A stretch of 64,000 bases of DNA. Origin: Patescibacteria group bacterium (GTDB taxonomy: Bacteria; Patescibacteriota; Patescibacteriia; Patescibacteriales; WJLG01). The notes beneath the pieces are model-generated. The model was given only the letters and a program-made list of their open reading frames with translations. It ran no database searches and was not told the origin of the DNA. This document shows, piece by piece, positions 3,303 through 28,854 of the stretch (positions are counted from its first letter, which is position 1; each line of letters starts with the position of its first letter). The translations under genes and the position numbers were made by a program. Where the stretch lies: contig JBAZHE010000004.1 of NCBI GenBank assembly GCA_041652555.1, positions 657-64,656 of the forward strand, in the 5' to 3' direction.

Positions 3303-3833
3303 TTATTTGCTAATTTTTTTATTTTTTCTGACTATTGACAAAAAATTTTCTTTATTTACTATCTTTTTACCAGTTTTTTGCTCCAATTCCAAGCGCGCAT
3401 TCTTAGCAATTTTTCCGCCCTTTTTTGCTGGAATTTTATTTTCTATTAAACCTTTAGCTTGCATCGTTTCGGCAATCTGACGAGTTGAAAGTTCTGCCAA
3501 GGCGGTAAAAACTAATTCGGCGTCAGACATATGGTCACGCAAATTTTCTGTTTTCAAACTTTTTAAATCTTTATGCTCTTAAACCGTTAAATCGCTCCAT
3601 TCTTGATGAATAATATTCGTCAAAATAGCATATTCATCTTCTTCTTTTACTTCATTATCTTTCCAGTAATCTGTCAGCTTATTCCAATACTTTCTTGCTG
3701 TCTGAAAATCTTTTTGGTCGGTTAAAACAGCGATAATATCCACCACGCTAAAATACCACTTTTCCTGTTTTTCATCCCAAGAACGGCGCACCGGTTGATC
3801 TTCAAAAATTGCCATTTGTTTTTCGTTGGTCAT
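3303..3833 (-). pseudogene. Bro-N / DinD-like (DNA-damage-inducible protein D family) gene interrupted by an in-frame TAA
   Basis: ORFs 3579-3833 and 3303-3557 share one frame and are separated only by TAA at 3579-3581: ...IIHQEWSDLTV*EHKDLKSLKTENLRDHMSDAELVF. The N-terminal part (FEDQPVRRSWDEKQEKWYFSVVDIIAVLT) and C-terminal part (NLRDHM..ELVFT..AKKGGKIAKNARLELEQKTGKK) match my memory of this family. Total length looks shorter than typical members. Confidence 0.55.
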
Positions 3834-5559: not shown

Positions 5560-7713
5560 CTAACCGTTAATCAAAACCCTAACCAGCCTTATTCTGTCAT
5601 AAGAATATTCTCCGTTAAATTTTTCAAAAATCGGCTTAAGTTTTTCATCACCAAGCTCAACAAAGGATTCTTTTATTTTATTATAACTATCCAGCGGCAA
5701 CTTTAAATATTCTAAATCCAATCGCTCACCGGCGTCTATCATTTTCTCTATATGGTTAACAACTGTCGGAACTTTAACATCTTGATGCTTGGCGATTCTT
5801 TCTATAGGTATTTTTTTAATCAAAAGTTCTCTGGTCTTGGCGTAGAATTGCGGATTTCCTATCAGCATTTTTATAATTCTTTCTTCTCTTATTGTTTTAT
5901 CCTTCACCGACACTTCCGCCTTTGAAATATTATGGCTCTTCATAAAATTTCCAATGCGCGCTAAAAATATTTCACCGTATTGCTCAAGTTTTTTCGCTCC
6001 AACTCCGCTAATACTTAAAAACTCTTCCTCGCTTAGGGGAAAATAGTAAGCCATTTCCTGCAAAGATGCGTCGCCAAAAATAATAAACGGCGGAACATCA
6101 GCCTTGTTAGCGAATTCTTTACGCAAAGCCCGGAGCTCGTCAAACAATTCTTGATTATAATCAACCTCGCCTTGCTTAACTTTTTTCGCCGTCACCATAT
6201 CAGCTCGGGGTTTTGCCAATTCCAACTCCTCATTATTTTTTAAAAAAATAAGCCCTTGGCGCGCAACGCGAAGAGTCGGATACTCCCCTTCATTTTTTAA
6301 CAAATATCCCTGATTAACCAGCTGATTAATAATTTGCGCCAAGCCGTTCTCGGAAAAATCTTTTACTATTCCAAACACTGACAACTCATGATGATTATTT
6401 CTTTTCACTTTTTGAGTGGCCTTGCCCAACAAAACATCAACAATATAATTTTTCCCAAAACGATTTTCAGTTCTTAAAATGGCGGAAATAATTTTTTGCG
6501 CCACTATTTTGGCCGAGAATTTTTCTTTTGGAGTTAAGCAAACATCACAGCCACCGCAATTATCATTTTTCAATTCTTCTCCAAAATATTTAAGCAAATA
6601 TTTTTTACGACAAGTATCAAGATCGCCATAATTTAAAACCTCGGCTAATTTTTCTTCAGCCATTCTCCGCAAATTATTATCTTCTATTTGATTGATAAAA
6701 AACTGATGCTTGCGCGTATCGGCGTAAGTATAAAACATCACGCATTCGCTTGGAAGCCCGTCGCGTCCGGCGCGACCGATTTCTTGATAATAGCCCTCTA
6801 GCGTTTTTGGAAAAGTATAATGCACCACCAAACGAACATCTGATTTATCTATTCCCATACCAAAAGCAATCGTCGCCACGATAATATCCACTTTATCTTT
6901 TATAAAAAGGTCTTGGGTTATTTTTCTTTCCCGATTATCAAGTCCGGCATGATAGGCGCGAGCGCTAAAATTATTTAGCTTTAAATTTTTCACCAAATCT
7001 TCAGTCTCTTTTCTGGAAAAACAATAAATAATCACCGATTCATTTTTATATTGATCCAATAATTTAACCAACTTAGGGAAAGCTTCTTTTTTTTCAATAA
7101 CACTAATTTTTAAATTCTCCCGGTTAAAACTGGAAATAAAAACCTTGGCCTTGGCCAAATTCAACTGCTTTAAAATATCCGCACGGACTCTCTCGGTAGC
7201 CGTAGCGGTTAAAGCAATAATCGGCACACCGGCAAAGACTTTTTTAAGCGCTCCTAAACTGCGATAATCAGGACGAAAATCATGCCCCCACTCGGAAATA
7301 CAATGAGCCTCATCAACCGCAACTAAACTAATCTCTAGACTTTTTAAAAATTCCTGAAAAGAAGACAGGGCGAATCTTTCCGGCGCAATATAAAGTAATT
7401 TTACACTCCCCTGTTTTATTTTTCTATAAACACTATTAATTTCATCCGATGTTAAGCTGGAATTAATAAACTCTGCCCCGATTCCGCACTCCCGCATAGA
7501 ATCAACCTGGTCTTTCATTAAGGCTATCAGAGGAGAAATAACTAAAGTAACGCCATAAAGTTTCAAAGCTGGCAACTGAAAACAAAGCGACTTACCGCCA
7601 CCGGTTGGCATCAAAACAAAACTATCACTCCCGGCTAGAACATTATTAATAATCTCCTCCTGTAAAGGACGAAATTCATCATGACCGAAATATTGTTTCA
7701 ATAATTTTTTCAT
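5560..7713 (-). CDS. recQ: ATP-dependent DNA helicase RecQ
   Basis: FGHDEFRPLQEEII, MPTGGGKSLCFQLPA, DEAHCISEWGHDFRPDY, a Cys cluster (CGGCDVC) and an HRDC-like segment (LFDELRALRKEFANKADVPPFIIFGDASLQEMA). Confidence 0.92.
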   Translation of the reverse strand: MKKLLKQYFGHDEFRPLQEEIINNVLAGSDSFVLMPTGGGKSLCFQLPALKLYGVTLVISPLIALMKDQVDSMRECGIGAEFINSSLTSDEINSVYRKIKQGSVKLLYIAPERFALSSFQEFLKSLEISLVAVDEAHCISEWGHDFRPDYRSLGALKKVFAGVPIIALTATATERVRADILKQLNLAKAKVFISSFNRENLKISVIEKKEAFPKLVKLLDQYKNESVIIYCFSRKETEDLVKNLKLNNFSARAYHAGLDNRERKITQDLFIKDKVDIIVATIAFGMGIDKSDVRLVVHYTFPKTLEGYYQEIGRAGRDGLPSECVMFYTYADTRKHQFFINQIEDNNLRRMAEEKLAEVLNYGDLDTCRKKYLLKYFGEELKNDNCGGCDVCLTPKEKFSAKIVAQKIISAILRTENRFGKNYIVDVLLGKATQKVKRNNHHELSVFGIVKDFSENGLAQIINQLVNQGYLLKNEGEYPTLRVARQGLIFLKNNEELELAKPRADMVTAKKVKQGEVDYNQELFDELRALRKEFANKADVPPFIIFGDASLQEMAYYFPLSEEEFLSISGVGAKKLEQYGEIFLARIGNFMKSHNISKAEVSVKDKTIREERIIKMLIGNPQFYAKTRELLIKKIPIERIAKHQDVKVPTVVNHIEKMIDAGERLDLEYLKLPLDSYNKIKESFVELGDEKLKPIFEKFNGEYSYDRIRLVRVLING

Positions 7714-16457: not shown

Positions 16458-16478
16458 GCGGAGAGTGAGGGATTTGAA
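16458..16478. repeat. attL: displaced copy of the tRNA-Ser 3' end
   Basis: Exact 21/21 match to 28834-28854. Confidence 0.85.
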
Positions 16479-16597: not shown

Positions 16598-16618
16598 TGG
16601 GCACAGGGTGGGCACAAA
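16598..16618. promoter_or_regulatory. 21-bp motif TGGGCACA-GGG-TGGGCACA-AA; candidate integrase arm-type site (left arm)
   Basis: Exact 21/21 match to 28708-28728. Internal 8-mer direct repeat with 11-bp register. Lies about 120 nt inside attL. Confidence 0.4.
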
Positions 16619-21907: not shown

Positions 21908-22115
21908 TCAAAATTTTTTATTCGTTGTCGGCAATTTGTAGTGTTTTTTGCAACCGTGCCAAAAGCACAAATCGATAAAAATAACCGTTTGATATTTTTT
22001 TCAAAACCAAATCAGGTTTTCCGAAATAATGAGTGGAATTTTTTCTATAACGAAAGCTCTCTTTCCAAAGGTCTCTTCTAAAACTAATTTCAATCTTACC
22101 GTCTTTACTTCTCAC
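21908..22115 (-). pseudogene. vsr: Decayed very-short-patch repair endonuclease (vsr) remnant
   Basis: Frame 1: RSKDGKIEISFRRDLWKESFRYRKNSTHYFGKPDLVLKK. After a frameshift, frame 2: KKYQTVIFIDLCFWHGCKKHYKLPTTNKKF then TGA where Vsr has Trp. The tail overlaps the next gene's start. Confidence 0.6.
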
Positions 22116-22164
22116 TTTACTTATTATTTCGCTTCTCTTTTTTTTAAAACTGTATCATCCATAA

Positions 22165-22920
22165 TTATTTATCAAATAACTCAACAGGATTGATTTTAAA
22201 TTGTAACATTTTAGCAGAATCTCTACCTCCGTCACCACCCTTTCTTTGCATTCCTATTTTTCCAATTTTCAGACTACCCTGGTCCGTTATTCTTATATCG
22301 CCTTGTCCAAAAACATTCATTGCCTCGTTAATAGATTTTAAAACCCAATCGTTATCACCATTCGCTTTTAAAATAACTAATACCCAATCAGCAGAAAATT
22401 CTCCCCTGCCTTTCAGTAAATCGGAAATAACAAGAATTCTGTTTTTATCAAAAAATTTAATAATCTTTTTTTGATCTTTCTTTTTCATTTCTGTTAAAAG
22501 CATTCTTCGAGGATCTTTTAAGTTTTTTTCTTTTGGCTCTATCTCACCAGTAAAAAGTTTTAAAATTTTAACAATATCTTTTGGAATTTTCCAAAGCTCG
22601 GTATATTTATCAACCCACCTTTTGTCAATTTGATTAAATCCCTGCGGGTTGCTAACCAATTTAACTTGCAAATTTTGCAAATCTTCTTGAGATTTTAATT
22701 TAATAACAATCCTAATCCTAACTTGAACGTCGGCCTTATATTGCCCTCTAACTTTTTCCGCTTTGACATATTCAATATTATCAAAATCATACCCCATTTC
22801 AGAAAGCCAAGCTTGAGCAATTTCACTCGCTCTCCAGTTATTAAATGTTTTTATTACATCTTTTTCGTTTTTGAACCCTCCCTTTGCGGTTTTAGAACCG
22901 AGTTTCACCAAATTTACCAT
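22165..22920 (-). CDS. Type II restriction endonuclease (specificity unknown; C-terminus reminiscent of the MspI/HpaII group)
   Basis: Immediately downstream of the C5-MTase. Candidate catalytic D...Q-V-K (KADVQV...LQVKLVSN). C-terminal KMLQFK resembles my memory of the R.MspI C-terminus. Weak. Confidence 0.5.
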   Translation of the reverse strand: MVNLVKLGSKTAKGGFKNEKDVIKTFNNWRASEIAQAWLSEMGYDFDNIEYVKAEKVRGQYKADVQVRIRIVIKLKSQEDLQNLQVKLVSNPQGFNQIDKRWVDKYTELWKIPKDIVKILKLFTGEIEPKEKNLKDPRRMLLTEMKKKDQKKIIKFFDKNRILVISDLLKGRGEFSADWVLVILKANGDNDWVLKSINEAMNVFGQGDIRITDQGSLKIGKIGMQRKGGDGGRDSAKMLQFKINPVELFDK

Positions 22921-22928
22921 ACAAATAT

Positions 22929-23912
22929 TTAAATTATGCTTATTAAATTTTGAGCCAATCTTTCTATCACATTAACAGTCATAGCATTTCCAGCTTGAGA
23001 TAAAAGATTTGTATTATTAATTTTTCCTATTGTTTTTTCCGCTATGTCTTTTGGGAAACCTTGCAACAACAAAGATTCAAATCCGGACAATCTCCTTAAT
23101 TTTCCATTTTTAACATAAAGAATTCCATGTCTGCCAGTTCTCAACGTTGGAACCTTATTTTTATAAATTCTTAAATCCGATTGTCTAGTGTCTAAAACAA
23201 TATAGTCTTTTTTAAGCAAATCTTCTAAATTATGTTTCCCTTTATTATACTTATTATTTAAGTAATTTAAAAAAGTTTTATACCCCGAGCTGTTTTCGTC
23301 AAATTCAAGCTCTTTGCCGCCATCAATTAAATATTCGGATAATTTAGGACTATCAGGAAGATCAATAAATCCTAAGTCATTATTTTTTACTAAGTCTTTT
23401 CTTATTCCAACGAAATAAATTCTTTCTCTCATTTGAGGAACTCCATAATGTTCGCTATTTAAAACCTCATTAAAAATAACTTTATATCCAGCCTTATCTA
23501 GTTCGTTTAAAATTACCCGCAAAGTTTTCCCCTCATCATGGTTAACTAATCCTTTAACATTTTCCAAAATAAAATATTTCAAATTCTTTTCAAGCATTAT
23601 TTTAATTAGGCCAAAAATTATTTGCCCTCTATCATCAGCCATTCCTTTTCTTTGCCCAACTATAGAAAATGATTGGCAAGGAAAACCGGCAATCATTAAA
23701 TCGAAGTCTGGCATTTGTTTTGGATCGGCTTTCATTAAATCGCCAAAGTTTTGCTCTTTATGTCCAAAAAATTCTCTGTATGTCTTCTCGGAACTTTTAT
23801 TTATTTCGGAAAAGCCGACACAACGCATTCCATTTTTTTCTAGACCGAGTCTGCCAGCCCCAATGCCGGCGCAGAAATCCATGAATTTTATTTTCTGTTT
23901 TGTTTTTTGCAT
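22929..23912 (-). CDS. DNA (cytosine-5)-methyltransferase
   Basis: Motif I FCAGIGAG, motif IV GFPCQSFS, ENVKGL, QMRERIYFVG, GNAMTVNV. The track start at 23969 is a GTG extension overlapping the lexA promoter; ATG at 23912 (MQKTKQKIKFMDF) is preferred. Confidence 0.9.
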   Translation of the reverse strand: MQKTKQKIKFMDFCAGIGAGRLGLEKNGMRCVGFSEINKSSEKTYREFFGHKEQNFGDLMKADPKQMPDFDLMIAGFPCQSFSIVGQRKGMADDRGQIIFGLIKIMLEKNLKYFILENVKGLVNHDEGKTLRVILNELDKAGYKVIFNEVLNSEHYGVPQMRERIYFVGIRKDLVKNNDLGFIDLPDSPKLSEYLIDGGKELEFDENSSGYKTFLNYLNNKYNKGKHNLEDLLKKDYIVLDTRQSDLRIYKNKVPTLRTGRHGILYVKNGKLRRLSGFESLLLQGFPKDIAEKTIGKINNTNLLSQAGNAMTVNVIERLAQNLISII

Positions 23913-23931
23913 ATTTATGTTTGTTATTAAT

Positions 23932-23960
23932 ATTTTACTCTTTTTACAAATACTTGTCCA
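23932..23960 (-). promoter_or_regulatory. Candidate promoter of the methyltransferase operon
   Basis: Minus strand TGGACA-17 nt-TAAAAT. Its -35 lies 3 bp from the divergent lexA -35. Confidence 0.35.
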
Positions 23961-23963
23961 CGG

Positions 23964-23992
23964 TTGCACTTCGGTCTATCTTCGGGTATAAT
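23964..23992 (+). promoter_or_regulatory. Candidate promoter of lexA
   Basis: TTGCAC-17 nt-TATAAT read directly. Confidence 0.5.
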
Positions 23993-24633: not shown

Positions 24634-25530
24634 ATGAAAAAAACTTCAAGTATTGCAATAGCAAAAAAAGGAGCTCTAAAAAAGATAACAGATAACATAG
24701 AAAAAATCTATGACGATTTTATAGTCAATGAAAAAATATATCAGCTTAGAATTGTTTGTCATTCTAAACCCGGTTTATACGAAAAGAACGAAGAAGCTGT
24801 CTCAAAAATAAAAGACATTGAAGAGCTTGTAAATTTTTTAGATGACCGGAGAATTGAACAATTTGATGAAGACGATAAAAATGAAGCGAAAGACGAAAAC
24901 ATAGCAAAAGTTAGAGCTTTATTGGCGTTGGAAGAAAAAGAATGGGCTGAAAAAAATAAAAGACCTTGGCCACCAGAAGAAGAGTCCAAATTTGAGAGAG
25001 AAGACTATATAAAAAATGAAGCCAAAAGAATTATGAAAGGCTCGACGGCTATTTTTCTTTTTAACCGAATCAATATTAATCCGGATTTATGGCGAAGTGT
25101 AATTGCGGCGATGTTTTTGCGTGTTCCGATAGAAAAAGTTTTGGAATGTAAAGAATCAATTTTAACTAAATATTTTTTACCGACAATTGATAATGATTGT
25201 TTAATAGTGCGTATCAATGAAATGACAAAGCCGGCAGATTTCGAACTAATTATAGATCTTTTAGGAACTAAGCAAAATGATTACGCAAAAAAATACGGAT
25301 ACATAAATAGTACGAGCACTACGGGATACCCAAGCCGCAAAGCGGACAAAATAATAACCGAATGCTATTTCAAAAGAATGGACATTAATCAAATTCACGA
25401 CGAATTAAAAAATCAAGGAATTACTAAAAAATATTCTGAGGCTAAAATTAAAGAAAGAATCAAAGAGTACTTGACACAGACTCGGCAAACGGAAAAATTA
25501 TCAGAAAAAATAAAAATTACCTGTGCATAG
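24634..25530 (+). CDS. Hypothetical protein (298 aa), probably co-transcribed with lexA
   Basis: Long ORF 28 nt after lexA; acidic/Lys-rich; no motif recognised. Confidence 0.5.
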   Translation: MKKTSSIAIAKKGALKKITDNIEKIYDDFIVNEKIYQLRIVCHSKPGLYEKNEEAVSKIKDIEELVNFLDDRRIEQFDEDDKNEAKDENIAKVRALLALEEKEWAEKNKRPWPPEEESKFEREDYIKNEAKRIMKGSTAIFLFNRININPDLWRSVIAAMFLRVPIEKVLECKESILTKYFLPTIDNDCLIVRINEMTKPADFELIIDLLGTKQNDYAKKYGYINSTSTTGYPSRKADKIITECYFKRMDINQIHDELKNQGITKKYSEAKIKERIKEYLTQTRQTEKLSEKIKITCA

Positions 25531-25598: not shown

Positions 25599-25632
25599 AA
25601 AGATTTTAATTTAACAATTAAAATCTTTTTTT
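25599..25632. repeat. 34-nt perfect hairpin repeat, copy 1 (AAAGATTTTAATT-taac-AATTAAAATCTTTTTTT)
   Basis: Near-identical to 25766-25799 (one loop difference). Could act as a terminator after ORF 24634-25530 or as an operator/origin element. Confidence 0.7.
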
Positions 25633-25765
25633 ATTACAAAAAATCAGCGAAAAAAAGAAAATCACAAAAAACAGAAAAAACTGAGAGATGTGGATAAATT
25701 TTTGCTCACGAAAATATTTTCTCAACACCAAGACCATTATCACTTTTAAAAAAAGATGTTATCCG

Positions 25766-25799
25766 AAAGATTTTAATTTGACAATTAAAATCTTTTTTT
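25766..25799. repeat. 34-nt perfect hairpin repeat, copy 2
   Basis: AAAGATTTTAATT-tgac-AATTAAAATCTTTTTTT, 167 nt after copy 1. A perfect DnaA-box 9-mer (TGTGGATAA, 25689-25697) lies between the copies. Confidence 0.7.
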
Positions 25800-25891
25800 A
25801 ATCAAATGTAAGCTAAATTTCTAACAACCCAAAATGCTATGATAATAATTAAAGAAACACTTTTAAAAAATAATTTTAATTTAATACAACG

Positions 25892-26401
25892 ATGGAAAAT
25901 GAAACTAAAAACTCAAACGACAAAGAAAGATTCCTTAAATTAAGATACGGATTATATGATTGGTTTATGTCAAACCGCTTTAGAGAACCAAAGTCTAAGG
26001 TTTTTTTTGCGATTGTCAGGCTTACGGACGGCTGGAATAAATCGGAGGCAATAATAAACGAAAGGCAACTGGCAAAAATAACAAAAATTAATTCAAGAAA
26101 CGTAGGAAGATACTTAAAATATATGCTTAACAAAAGAATCTTATTTAGACGTGATAGTGGAAAGAAAAAATATGGCAAAACAATGTATTTTTACAAGATA
26201 AACAGTCACATACGCCATCCAAAAGATGGCAGTGAAGAAAACCACCATTCAGAAGATGGCAATACAGCCATACCGCTTACGGCAAAAACCGCCATAAGCG
26301 AGATGGCTATTAAAGATATAAAAGAAATTAAAAATAAAGCTGTGCAAGAATCTATGGATAAACTTAAAAACTACAAAAAGGGCTACCTAGACGAACAGTA
26401 G
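25892..26401 (+). CDS. Phage replication protein O-like / DnaD-like wHTH replication initiator
   Basis: KVFFAIVRLTDGWNKSEAIINERQLAKITKINSRNVGRYLKYMLNKRIL matches my memory of the phage_rep_O N-terminal domain pattern (R.T.G..K....IS..Q.A..TG.....V.R....L....I). Confidence 0.55.
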   Translation: MENETKNSNDKERFLKLRYGLYDWFMSNRFREPKSKVFFAIVRLTDGWNKSEAIINERQLAKITKINSRNVGRYLKYMLNKRILFRRDSGKKKYGKTMYFYKINSHIRHPKDGSEENHHSEDGNTAIPLTAKTAISEMAIKDIKEIKNKAVQESMDKLKNYKKGYLDEQ

Positions 26402-26439
26402 AAAAAAGAAAACGAAAGAAAAAAGAAAAAATTGCGGAA

Positions 26440-27460
26440 GTAAAGGAACCTCCCCCTTTCTTTGTAAAAATTTCAAAAGAGACTTCCCCTTTTAAAAGAC
26501 TTTTGATTTTAAGATAGCTTGTAGATTTTCCGCCCGAAAAAATTAGCCCTCCCCTTTCATTACAACCTAATGGCCGGAGCAAGGACTTTGCAAGAGCCTC
26601 GCGGTAATTTCCGGCCGTAACTTAGATTGAACTTCGGTAAATGGTTTTTCCACAAAAAGATAGGCAGGGGTGAGAAAGAGAAAAAGAAAAAGATAAGCTC
26701 CTTTAAAAAACAGAATGAATAAGCGCCCCAAGCTCCCATATTAAATTATTAAAAAAAGATTGGGGCAATTATTCTTTCTGTTTTTCAGAAAATAATTTTT
26801 TCTTTTTCTCTTTCTCACCTCTGCCGAATTATATTCTATCCGACTACAAAAAAGTTTTCACAACCGAACGAAATGACTGATAAACATTTAGAAAGCCAAA
26901 CGCGATGAAAGAAGTTTTTTAAAAGCAAAAACATCCTCCCAAAAAAATATTATTTTTTGCTTTTAAAAAACTTCTTTGGTCGCGACAATGTTGCAAGATT
27001 GACTTTTAGAACGCAACCGCCGGAGCAATGACACAGGCAGAACACAAAACTTTTTCCCGGCGGAACTTAGATGAATTTCGCGAGAGCAACCGAAGCCAAC
27101 CACGACAGAATATTTTTCACTTGTCTCCGTTGCCTTACTTCGCATAACGCATATTCTCGCGAAGTAAGTTGAGAACGTTCTTTCTCCCCTATCTTAATTT
27201 AATTCGCGCGCGATTACCTTTGCTTGACCGAGATGTTTAAACGCGTCTACTTCCGCGAAATATTCGTTATGCGAAGTAAGGGTGCGAGAACGAAAGCTTT
27301 ACCTGTGTCTCCGACTATTTTCCACGCGAGCCAAGACGAATATAATCTAGTGACGAACTTTCGCGAGCGAAGCCTCAAAAACACCAAGACATCCATCTTA
27401 AAAAATGGTACAATACAAGAGTGCTTAAGGTGATAAAATCACCCCCTGTATTGTACCTTA
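26440..27460. other. About 1 kb ORF-free, relatively GC-richer, hairpin- and repeat-dense segment (candidate origin/iteron region or structured ncRNA)
   Basis: TCCCCTTT-type repeats (26450-26558). Long hairpin 26664-26824. Perfect 24-bp-stem hairpin 26901-26985. Two ~60-nt related units (26574-26637 and 27020-27080). 16-nt perfect inverted repeat 27133-27148 / 27266-27281. Hairpin 27407-27457. Confidence 0.6.
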
Positions 27461-27469
27461 ACAATTAAA

Positions 27470-27685
27470 ATGATTGGTTCCCACGCCAACAAAAAATTGA
27501 TAAACACCGCTGAATTAGCGGAATACCTAAGGTTATCAAAAACCTCTGTTTATCGTTTGATAGAGAAAAGATCCATTCGCTTTTACAAAGCCGGCGGACA
27601 CATTCTCTTTGATATTTATGATGTCGATGAATATCTAAAAAATAGATGCGTGGAACCGATAGAAAGAAAATATGGCAACATATAA
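27470..27685 (+). CDS. xis: Excisionase-family HTH DNA-binding protein
   Basis: LINTAELAEYLRLSKTSVYRLIEKRSIRFYKAGGHILFDIYDVDEYL (HTH_17 / excisionase pattern). Overlaps the integrase start by 14 nt. Confidence 0.75.
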   Translation: MIGSHANKKLINTAELAEYLRLSKTSVYRLIEKRSIRFYKAGGHILFDIYDVDEYLKNRCVEPIERKYGNI

Positions 27686-28771
27686 AAGAGGAAAGGTTTG
27701 GTATGTGCGTTTTCGTTACGGACGAGAAAGATGCGTTAAAAAATCTCCGGACAATTCTCCGTCTGGGGCCAAGGCTTTTGAAGCCAATTTAAGAAACCGA
27801 CTTGCTCGAGGAGAAAACATCAACTGCGAAGAAGAAAAAAAGACGGATATTTCTTTTGCCGATTTTTCCAAAAAGTTTTTTGATATTTATGTTAAGAATA
27901 ACAATAAGCTATCAGAGCAAATGCAAAAGAATTATGTTTTCAAAGCAAGGCTAATTCCTTTCTTTGGCAAAACTAAAATGTCTGAAATATCCAGTTTGCA
28001 AATAGAAGAATTTAAGGCTCACGTGCTTGGCACGGGAATTAAAAGAAAGACAGCTAATAATATTTTAACCATGTTAGCGAAATGTCTTAGAACTGCCGAA
28101 GAATGGGAAGTCATTGAAAAAATTCCCCGAATAAAAAAATTCAAAGTTGAGCCATGCGGTTTTGATTTCTTAACTGAAAAAGATATTGAAGATTTAATTG
28201 GGGCGGCTAAGGGAATTTGGAAAGACATGATTAAATTCGCGATTGATACTGGGCTAAGGCTCGGGGAAATAAGCGCGCTTGATTGGACTTGTGTTGATTT
28301 AAACAAGAAAACAATCACGGTAAGAAGATCTTACACAAAAGGTCAAATGTCATCGCCCAAGAGTAATAAGGAAAGACACATTCCAATGACCAGTCGAGTT
28401 TTTGAACTTCTGCAAAATCGTCCGGGAAGAATAGGATTAATTTTTTCTTTAGAGAATGGCAAACCGATAGAACAAAATCGATGCCGAAATCATATGCTGG
28501 CAATCTGTCAAAGAGCCAATCTGAGGCCTTTAAAATGGCACACGCTGCGTCATACCTTTGCAACTAGACTAATTAGCAATGGTGCCTCCATAAAAGCCAT
28601 ACAAGAGCTTTTAGGCCATTCGGAAAAGCCGTTACCATGAGATACGCTCATCTTGAGCCCAACGTTTTAAAAGACACTGTGGAAATTTTAGACAGTTTAG
28701 AGATTAGTGGGCACAGGGTGGGCACAAATGCCAAAATTTGCCTCCCGATAGAGGCAATAAAGCAATTTTAA
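27672..28771 (+). pseudogene. int: Tyrosine integrase, frameshifted just upstream of the catalytic Tyr
   Basis: Frame 1 ends ...HTLRHTFATRLISNGASIKAIQELLGHSEKPLP* (28640). A shifted frame continues MRYAHLEPNVLKDTV... to 28771. Restoring one A in GAAAAG (28623-28628) gives GHSEKAVTMRYAHL, the canonical box II. Confidence 0.8.
28708..28728. promoter_or_regulatory. 21-bp TGGGCACA-GGG-TGGGCACA-AA motif, right copy (candidate arm-type site)
   Basis: Exact match to 16598-16618. About 105 nt inside attR, within the frameshifted integrase tail. Confidence 0.4.
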
Positions 28772-28833
28772 AAATCAATTTTTACCCTTTAAATACAACA
28801 AAAAAAGGCCATTAAGCCTTTTTAAAATGAGGT

Positions 28834-28854
28834 GCGGAGAGTGAGGGATTTGAA
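28834..28854. repeat. attR core within the tRNA-Ser 3' end
   Basis: Exact 21/21 match to 16458-16478. Confidence 0.85.

Follow-up and report, generated by a model that had tools for sequence, protein, structure and literature searches.

Between the genes rep and xis, in the right half of a 12.4-kb island carried by a metagenome-assembled Patescibacteria genome, lies a gap of 1.07 kb packed with hairpins and short repeats (positions 26,440 to 27,460 of the 64-kb stretch of DNA analysed here, which we call the window). Judged from its sequence, the island is an integrative element at tRNA-Ser(gga), bounded by the two att copies of a 21-nt direct repeat, GCGGAGAGTGAGGGATTTGAA (16458-16478 and 28834-28854), the second of which is the 3' end of the tRNA gene. 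Gene order in its right half runs from a LexA-like S24 repressor through a 298-aa protein, rep, the gap and xis to a tyrosine integrase, and the island genes include none for a capsid or terminase. An earlier note on this DNA had treated the gap as one unit, which does not hold: on comparative grounds it is made of a left part of ~890 nt (26402 to ~27290) that goes with the rep module and a right part of ~100 nt (27375-27471) that goes with xis and is kept, together with the last of the hairpins (g), in 14 islands that do not have the remaining region. We give about an even chance to the left part being a replication origin region, whose hairpins would act as single strands through host factors.

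All seven repeat and hairpin features described in the earlier note, which keep their letters a to g here, were recovered in place or a few bases away by a sequence check combined with a repeat finder. The features of the rep module and the left part, with their counterparts in homologous loci (L074, L077 and L084) where these concern a single feature, are as follows.

24634-25530, + strand: gene of the 298-aa protein, the conserved partner of rep (homologs 51-74% identical)
25892-26401, + strand: rep, encoding a 169-aa protein with the N-terminal domain of phage replication protein O (Pfam PF04492, E = 6e-11)
26208-26310, 3' end of rep: three 26-nt dyad repeats CCAT-N6-GATGGC, with a degenerate fourth near 26267
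26310-26445, + strand: A-rich, purine-biased tract (57% A, 74% purine, 73% AT)
26425-26439, + strand: conserved box GAAAAAATTGCGGAA inside the A-rich tract, also present in L074, L077 and L084
26442-26459, 26475-26492 and 26540-26557, + strand: C-rich direct repeats a1-a3 (block 26442-26561; spacing 33 and 65 nt)
26566-26641, + strand: hairpin d1, with a stem of 9 bp rich in GC, a loop of 31 nt that opens with AGCAAGGAC and an AACTT tail that is conserved (78.9 bits with R1, a covariance model of hairpin d)
26663-26825, + strand: hairpin b, 163 nt, near-continuous, with a purine-rich 5' arm
26901-26984, + strand: hairpin c, with 31-nt arms of which the inner 24 bp are perfect
27012-27086, + strand: hairpin d2, the second d copy (R1 72.7 bits)
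27133-27281, + strand: hairpin e, a long-range inverted repeat (27133-27166 / 27248-27281) that includes the e1 box (27139-27165) and its partner e2
27205-27212, loop of hairpin e: (CG)4 run CGCGCGCG (f); L077 has CCGCCGCGAA at a similar place
27077 (+), 27156 (-) and 27360 (+): short GC-rich repeat TTCGCGAG, the only three exact copies in the window
27080, 27284, 27326 and 27363: short repeats GCGAG(A/C), within a GC-rich repeat stretch at 27077-27367

Ranked over the entire window, the top five inverted repeats all fall inside 25599-27281; the hairpin cluster is not due to chance. The region is also GC-richer than its surroundings, as the earlier note had supposed (0.33-0.455, with the peak of 0.455 at 27000-27400, against ~0.25-0.33 across the remaining island), and CGCGA is enriched 11-fold in it. 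The view that it holds no credible open reading frame (ORF) is likewise upheld, all six frames being broken by all three types of stop codon; neither Pfam nor PHROG gave a match for its small ORFs, and tblastn of the region against related loci gave no protein-level similarity. A recoded or decayed gene was rejected on these grounds and on that of the mixed stops. A scan of the window with the covariance models of Rfam 15, proposed in the earlier note, gave no family for the region: at gathering score the sole match was tRNA-Ser, at E <= 10 the others were miRNA-type generic hairpin noise, and L074, L077 and L084 had no match. No copy of the region or of any of its hairpins was found elsewhere in the window, and blastn of the region against phage and plasmid collections returned nothing. 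The arm of hairpin b was not matched in viral and metagenome collections, the latter of which does not contain the source sample, and a scan of viral contigs with the motif CCGGAGCAA...AACTTAGAT yielded eight chance matches, all without a stem.

The left part belongs to a module that recurs in other mobile elements of candidate phyla. Wherever the sequence of a locus is long enough, a small winged helix-turn-helix rep (Phage_rep_O or HTH_36) comes next after the gene of the 298-aa protein, with a gene-free stretch beyond it, which measures 1.3 kb in the closest relative (the P0122 locus, compared by its gap size), 1 kb to the contig end in L077 and 434 nt to the contig end in L074, and is partial in L084. 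The non-coding arms have a common order: an A-rich tract with its box, GC-rich repeats, d in one or two copies, b and e. At least two of the elements bearing the module have a large serine recombinase in place of xis and int, so that the module does not depend on one integration system. The 298-aa family has 41 representatives among 1.84 billion proteins; it gave no Pfam or PDB match and has no invariant histidine, and the AlphaFold model of the protein is of low confidence (pLDDT 47). Rep matches the PHROG family 'replication initiation O-like' and is 35% identical to the Rep of L074 and 26% to that of L077; it was a singleton in a protein search, and tblastn found only O proteins of Pseudomonas phages at 25% identity. 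Several independent assemblies break in or just after the module, namely L074 (10156), L077 (3242) and L075, L076 and L085, the break points being the end of e1, 20 nt past e2 or right after the 298-aa gene; this suggests either a module boundary common to different elements or hairpins that are hard to assemble. L077 was considered as a circular plasmid and rejected, as it has no terminal overlap and starts in an apparent tRNA fragment (in which ARAGORN does not call a tRNA).

The hairpins of the left part differ in how far they are conserved, and d and e are conserved most. The two related d units of the earlier note lie at d1 and d2 in the window and stand side by side in L074, where b and c are missing, and a tandem duplication of a ~460-nt unit was dropped for this reason. 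In a structure-anchored alignment of five copies of d, all core cells are paired (35/35) and three pairs have changed on both sides, with a covariation score of 0.344 (0.10 in shuffles; 1/500) that collapses once the partner is slid; the conserved nucleotides of d are located at the edges of the loop. Hairpin e, whose outer 16-17 nt pair perfectly, as had been reported, has folding z-scores of about -6 (minimum free energy against dinucleotide shuffles, calculated on both strands here and below). Its 27-nt e1 box is identical at 26 positions between the window and L074, a pair in which the rep genes are 55% identical as DNA and 35% as protein and the 298-aa genes 63% as DNA. All four complete copies of e fold into a single hairpin (4/4) with an invariant 10-bp core, TCGCATAACG/CGTTATGCGA, and with compensatory changes in the basal and distal stems, while the apical unpaired part between the arms has about 20 nt at its shortest and 88 nt at its longest. 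In three of these four copies the sense strand folds more stably than its complement. The (CG)4 run in the loop of the window copy is present as first described.

Hairpin b has outer arms of 29 nt with one G.T pair and inner arms of 29 nt that are 86% complementary, which agrees with its first description, and its minimum free energy is -75.8 (+) and -81.7 (-) kcal/mol (z = -11.5 / -12.7). Its homolog in L077 follows a d unit, is 281 nt long and has the same stem base, GATAGGCAG...CTGCC, with arms that have co-evolved; b is absent from L074. Hairpin c has the perfect 24-bp core ascribed to it (z = -10.1 / -7.7); it has no counterpart in L074 or L077 and was seen in the window only. Thus d, b and e are kept in homologs with compensatory changes, where the earlier note had staked its case on the region and its stems being conserved. 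Each covariation claim made here rests on 4-14 sequences. The covariation, with the tolerance of very different loop sizes, suggests that d, b and e are under selection as folded single strands; variable loop length would be awkward for a fixed double-stranded binding geometry and points the same way. Both d and e combine compensatory stems with conserved unpaired or core nucleotides, as is expected of single-strand signals.

The same hairpins occur in two small phages. An exact-pattern scan of IMG/VR with the e box gave two contigs, L086 and L087; L091, a high-GC prophage found in a looser scan with the e core, was judged a chance match. L087 (IMGVR_UViG_3300037247_001427) has a 125-nt terminal overlap and is therefore a circular genome of ~14.2 kb, with a PHROG major head protein, a Pfam M23/LysM lysin and all genes on one strand. 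It has no recognisable replication protein, and hairpins and GCGAGC/GGAGCG repeats crowd its one non-coding region of 1.2 kb. L086 shares 72% DNA identity with it and is collinear across the genes for terminase and portal; Pfam gives L086 a Terminase_6N match slightly short of the cutoff (20.5 vs 22 bits, E = 4e-4), and its portal gene clearly matches the SPP1 type. In both phages the cassette of hairpins lies in the only large non-coding region (1.2-1.45 kb), beside the terminase genes, between a gene for a 189-aa zinc-ribbon/HTH protein and terL. There it comprises a d-like hairpin with the stems GGCTGG/CCAGCC and ACGCTCGG/CCGAGCGT, a complete e hairpin, a 26-30-bp purine-rich hairpin and many GCGAGC/GGAGCG repeats; arrays of GCGAGC flank d in both phages and in L074, which has four copies. 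Just upstream of terL, L086 also contains four tandem ~40-nt repeats of an iteron-like kind (TTTTAATGTAAATGTTGATGTTTGGTGTTAATGTCAGAG-like; 3330-3570, - strand). Homologs of Rep, the 298-aa protein, the repressor and Xis were not found in either phage, nor was the 189-aa phage protein found in the islands. Being present in phages with no Rep homolog, hairpins d and e are not binding sites of Rep, and their reader must be encoded by the host or supplied in trans.

Better candidates for the sites of Rep lie outside the region first flagged. The dyad repeats at 26208-26310, in the 3' end of rep, are putative Rep iterons and are followed by the purine-rich tract; CCAT-N6-GATGGC occurs exactly three times in the 64-kb window, all at 26214-26307, and its sequence is not conserved between homologs. 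The C-rich repeats a (TCCCCTTT-type), which the earlier note had reported correctly (YCCCCTTT occurs five times in the window, 3/5 here and all three on the + strand), come second to these dyads as candidate Rep iterons; a1 and a2 align loosely with L074, and no counterpart was noticed in L077. The A-rich tract at 26310-26445 would supply an AT-rich unwinding region beside repeats, as in iteron-type origins, and has counterparts in all three homologs with the shared box GAAAA(A)TTGCGSAA. Rep itself is directly upstream, a linkage kept in L074, L077 and L084. The linkage to rep in every island, the dyad repeats, the A-rich tract and the arrays of short repeats together argue for an island origin region, and it is from these that we infer origin activity. 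Once the island is excised, the O-like Rep would bind the dyads within the 3' end of rep, in a way similar to that of lambda O on ori-lambda, and the adjoining purine-rich A tract would melt. This would leave a single strand in which the strand-specific hairpins d, e and b could fold, unless they do so in a read-through transcript of rep, and host replication proteins would use them for entry or priming. Initiators or nickases of the HUH, Rep_trans and relaxase types were not found among the module and nearby island proteins scanned, nor in the Pfam listing of the source contig.

The right part of the gap stands apart from this origin region and has its own set of features.

27386-27414, + strand: predicted sigma-70-type promoter of xis (AAGACA, 17-nt spacer, TG-extended TACAAT)
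27407-27457, + strand: hairpin g, a two-tier leader hairpin of xis found in all 14 islands of the xis-int family
27458-27471, + strand: box TTAACAATTAAAAT, ending in the xis start codon and nearly invariant in the 14 islands
27470-27685, right half of the island: xis, an HTH_17 excisionase gene

Across 15 integrase-related loci, the nearest with integrases 58% identical to that of the window, DNA similarity to the region is confined to the last ~100 nt and most loci have coding genes up to xis; these relatives were dropped as comparators for the full region, the xis leader being the only common part. As read across the islands, the box is CYTTAAMAATTWAA and runs into the xis start codon; the promoter layout (-35, 17-nt spacer, -10) in the related islands was read by eye and is unscored. 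Hairpin g is present as the earlier note had it, with a stem slightly longer than the 11 bp given there (13 stacked positions with one A.C), and has z-scores of -4.6 / -7.6. When the 14 sequences were folded one by one and pairs indexed from the box, 10-12 consecutive positions of the outer stem were paired in nearly all islands, mostly with two to four pair types. One position is U.G in half of them (7/14), which would be A.C on the opposite strand and marks the + strand as the folding strand of g. The pattern of conservation indicates that g is a cis-regulatory hairpin of the xis-int module, and it probably controls expression of the excision gene. Its 5' arm overlaps the predicted -10, so that it may form in the xis mRNA or only in read-through transcripts.

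The earlier note had offered three candidates for the whole region, an iteron or origin complex, a packaging or transfer site, and structured non-coding RNA; the comparative data favour the first, with the other two as live rivals. Structured RNA from the rep-sense strand we consider unlikely, though it holds a real share of the probability. This could be a processed 3' untranslated region or read-through RNA that regulates or primes replication, or the hairpins could be RNase III-type processing or insulation sites between operons, and in the phages the cassette would form part of a long co-directional transcript ahead of the late genes. The flanking genes are all co-directional and the region is thus likely transcribed; its GC-richness relative to the surroundings, the compensatory changes in d and e, the conserved nucleotides at the loop edges of d, the more stable sense strand of e (3/4 copies) and the U.G pairs of g, A.C on the other strand, would all be at home in an RNA. 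However, hairpins b, c and e of the window have as many G.T as A.C mismatches (three each), the direct-repeat families (GCGAGC, CCAT-N6-ATGG, C-rich) are typical of protein-binding DNA and not of RNA genes, and perfect duplexes of 24-30 bp would be cut by RNase III. Rfam at E = 10 found only generic hairpin noise, and inspection of the window, L074 and L077, by eye and not by a scan, revealed no conserved promoter or terminator around either d or e.

A packaging site, cos or pac, of the small phages, of which the island would carry a copy for the terminase of a helper and so be a phage satellite, seems to us distinctly improbable. Its appeal lies in the phages, where the cassette is directly upstream of terL and the portal gene, and in the e hairpin being common to islands and phages (arms 96% and 91% identical) that have no common protein, a pattern that matches satellites borrowing the cos site of a helper (P4/P2 and cos-type Staphylococcus aureus pathogenicity islands, SaPIs). 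The island at 12.4 kb has about 87% of the 14.2-kb unit length of the phage and no capsid or terminase genes, and arrays of short repeats flank the cassette, as they do around known pac sites. Yet terminases read double-stranded DNA, whereas covarying stems, loops of ~20-88 nt and strand bias indicate a folded single strand; all islands have the cassette joined to rep, of which a packaging site has no need; and a single phage lineage is known. The only non-coding region of the phage must also hold its origin and promoters, so the position does not discriminate. That the hairpins are selfish or neutral palindromes, produced by slippage or by insertion of miniature inverted-repeat transposable elements (MITEs) in a dispensable spacer of a decaying island, is very improbable and could at most account for hairpin c and for the changing length of b: c is confined to the window, b measures 0, 163 or 281 nt among homologs, the arms are nearly perfect and the integrase is frameshifted, but no second copy of any hairpin occurs in the 64-kb window, neither b nor c had a noticeable target-site duplication at its ends, the stems of d, e and g are conserved and covary in elements with proteins of 26-60% identity, and b keeps its position and stem base in L077. 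Dispersed copies, a mark of MITE-like elements, were not seen in the window or in the viral and metagenome scans with the b arm.

Several points weigh against reading the left part as an origin. The place of the phage cassette, directly upstream of terL, is the classic place of a packaging site, and covarying hairpins with a sense-strand bias are equally expected of an RNA. The number of sequences behind each covariation claim on the left part is small (3-5), the two phages are one lineage, and the island homologs are one inherited block, so that the constant position next to rep does not amount to several independent observations. Hairpin c may have arisen by the recent expansion of a palindrome and serve no purpose, and the frameshifted integrase may mean that the element is decaying. 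There is also a second candidate origin upstream of rep, with two conserved palindromes, an A-rich stretch and the window's only perfect DnaA box.

25599-25633: palindrome 1 upstream of rep, core GATTTTAATTTAACAATTAAAATC (palindrome search)
25689-25697, - strand: perfect DnaA-box consensus TTATCCACA, the sole perfect copy in the window, between the palindromes
25766-25800: palindrome 2, just upstream of the rep promoter (palindrome search)

The pair of palindromes (30-35 nt, ~150 nt apart) is kept in L077, L084 and L078, and one-mismatch DnaA boxes occur at the equivalent place in L084 and L078, with one in L074; enrichment of DnaA boxes was rejected, their frequency not being above chance. 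The 14-mer TTAACAATTAAAAT of the xis leader occurs in the window only at the xis start and inside both palindromes, which may be operators or an alternative origin core.

Several further observations concern the island and its insertion site. The integrase ORF ends at 28640 (LLGHSEKPLP*) by a frameshift just ahead of the catalytic tyrosine, and the C-terminus with the catalytic-tyrosine motif MRYAHLEPNVL continues in another frame after a one-base shift near an A-run (region 28600-28774); the protein is 322 aa here vs 363-374 aa in homologs. The gene may have decayed to a pseudogene or be read by programmed slippage, or the sequence may be in error. At 126-140 nt inward from each end of the island is a copy of a second repeat, GGGCACAGGGTGGGCACAAA (16598-16618 and 28708-28728), and its copies would flank the core of the excised circle, like arm-type integrase sites. 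At 21918-23969 the island has a Vsr-like gene, a restriction enzyme of the R.HinP1I type and a C5 cytosine methylase; three of the 164 GCGC sites of the window are inside the 1-kb region, although CGCG is common there. At the same tRNA-Ser / gatA site, L002 (GCA_964547855.1) has a different island with its own ORF-poor stretch of ~1.1 kb (6037-7140), containing hairpins of 143 nt (6054-6196) and 105 nt (-50 kcal/mol on the + strand vs -35) and a 42-nt direct repeat; this stretch was rejected as a homolog of the window region because, long hairpins notwithstanding, its sequence similarity is nil.

Little is known of the replication and movement of mobile elements in Patescibacteria. Three things come out of the comparisons made here. 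The first is a compact replication module in which the 298-aa protein and a small O-like Rep go together with an arm that is conserved and rich in hairpins. The second is the pair of motifs d and e, hairpins that Rfam lacks and by which integrative islands are tied to small phages, and the third is the leader hairpin conserved ahead of xis in a widespread integrase family. A bolder proposal, which we hold to be doubtful, is that the d-e cassette is a new class of strand-specific cis-element, acting as RNA or as single-stranded DNA, that is common to very small phages and islands of candidate phyla, the islands exploiting the phage through its packaging machinery or an origin-firing factor. Were this so, the islands would be phage satellites of Patescibacteria, of which, to our knowledge, none has been described so far; if the link to the phages is one of hitch-hiking, phage satellites would thereby be extended to this group.

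Among known systems, the origins of lambda and of lambdoid phages with an O protein are close in layout, with the N-terminal domain of O, dyad repeats inside the initiator gene just past that domain, a strand-biased AT-rich tract next to them and then inverted repeats. Unlike O, the Rep of the island has 169 aa and is without the C-terminal half, and no P-like or helicase-loader gene accompanies it; the non-coding part, moreover, is ~900 nt long with very long hairpins, and its conserved hairpins occur also in phages with no O-like protein. In RSF1010, oriV carries the inverted sites ssiA and ssiB, and in pAMbeta1 the origin is downstream of repE and is followed by ssiA. The island resembles these plasmids in having its putative origin beside or downstream of rep, hairpins that would be active only as single strands, a conserved sequence in inverted copies (e1 and e2) and signals that factors besides the initiator could read, but there is no sequence similarity and no dedicated primase was identified in the island. 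The cos sites common to satellites and helpers (P4/P2, cos-type SaPIs) are, like the cassette, short non-coding sequences much more conserved than any gene, shared by a phage and by islands with no packaging genes, adjacent to terL in the phage and carried by an island slightly smaller than it; known cos sites differ in being recognised as double strands, with no covarying hairpins. Finally, the left part recalls the single-strand origins (sso) that rolling-circle plasmids and ICEBs1 (PMC4595007) have. These are strand-specific, non-coding hairpin regions of 150-300 nt in small mobile elements, common to unrelated replicons and read by host enzymes; the island proteins scanned include no HUH or Rep_trans initiator and no relaxase.

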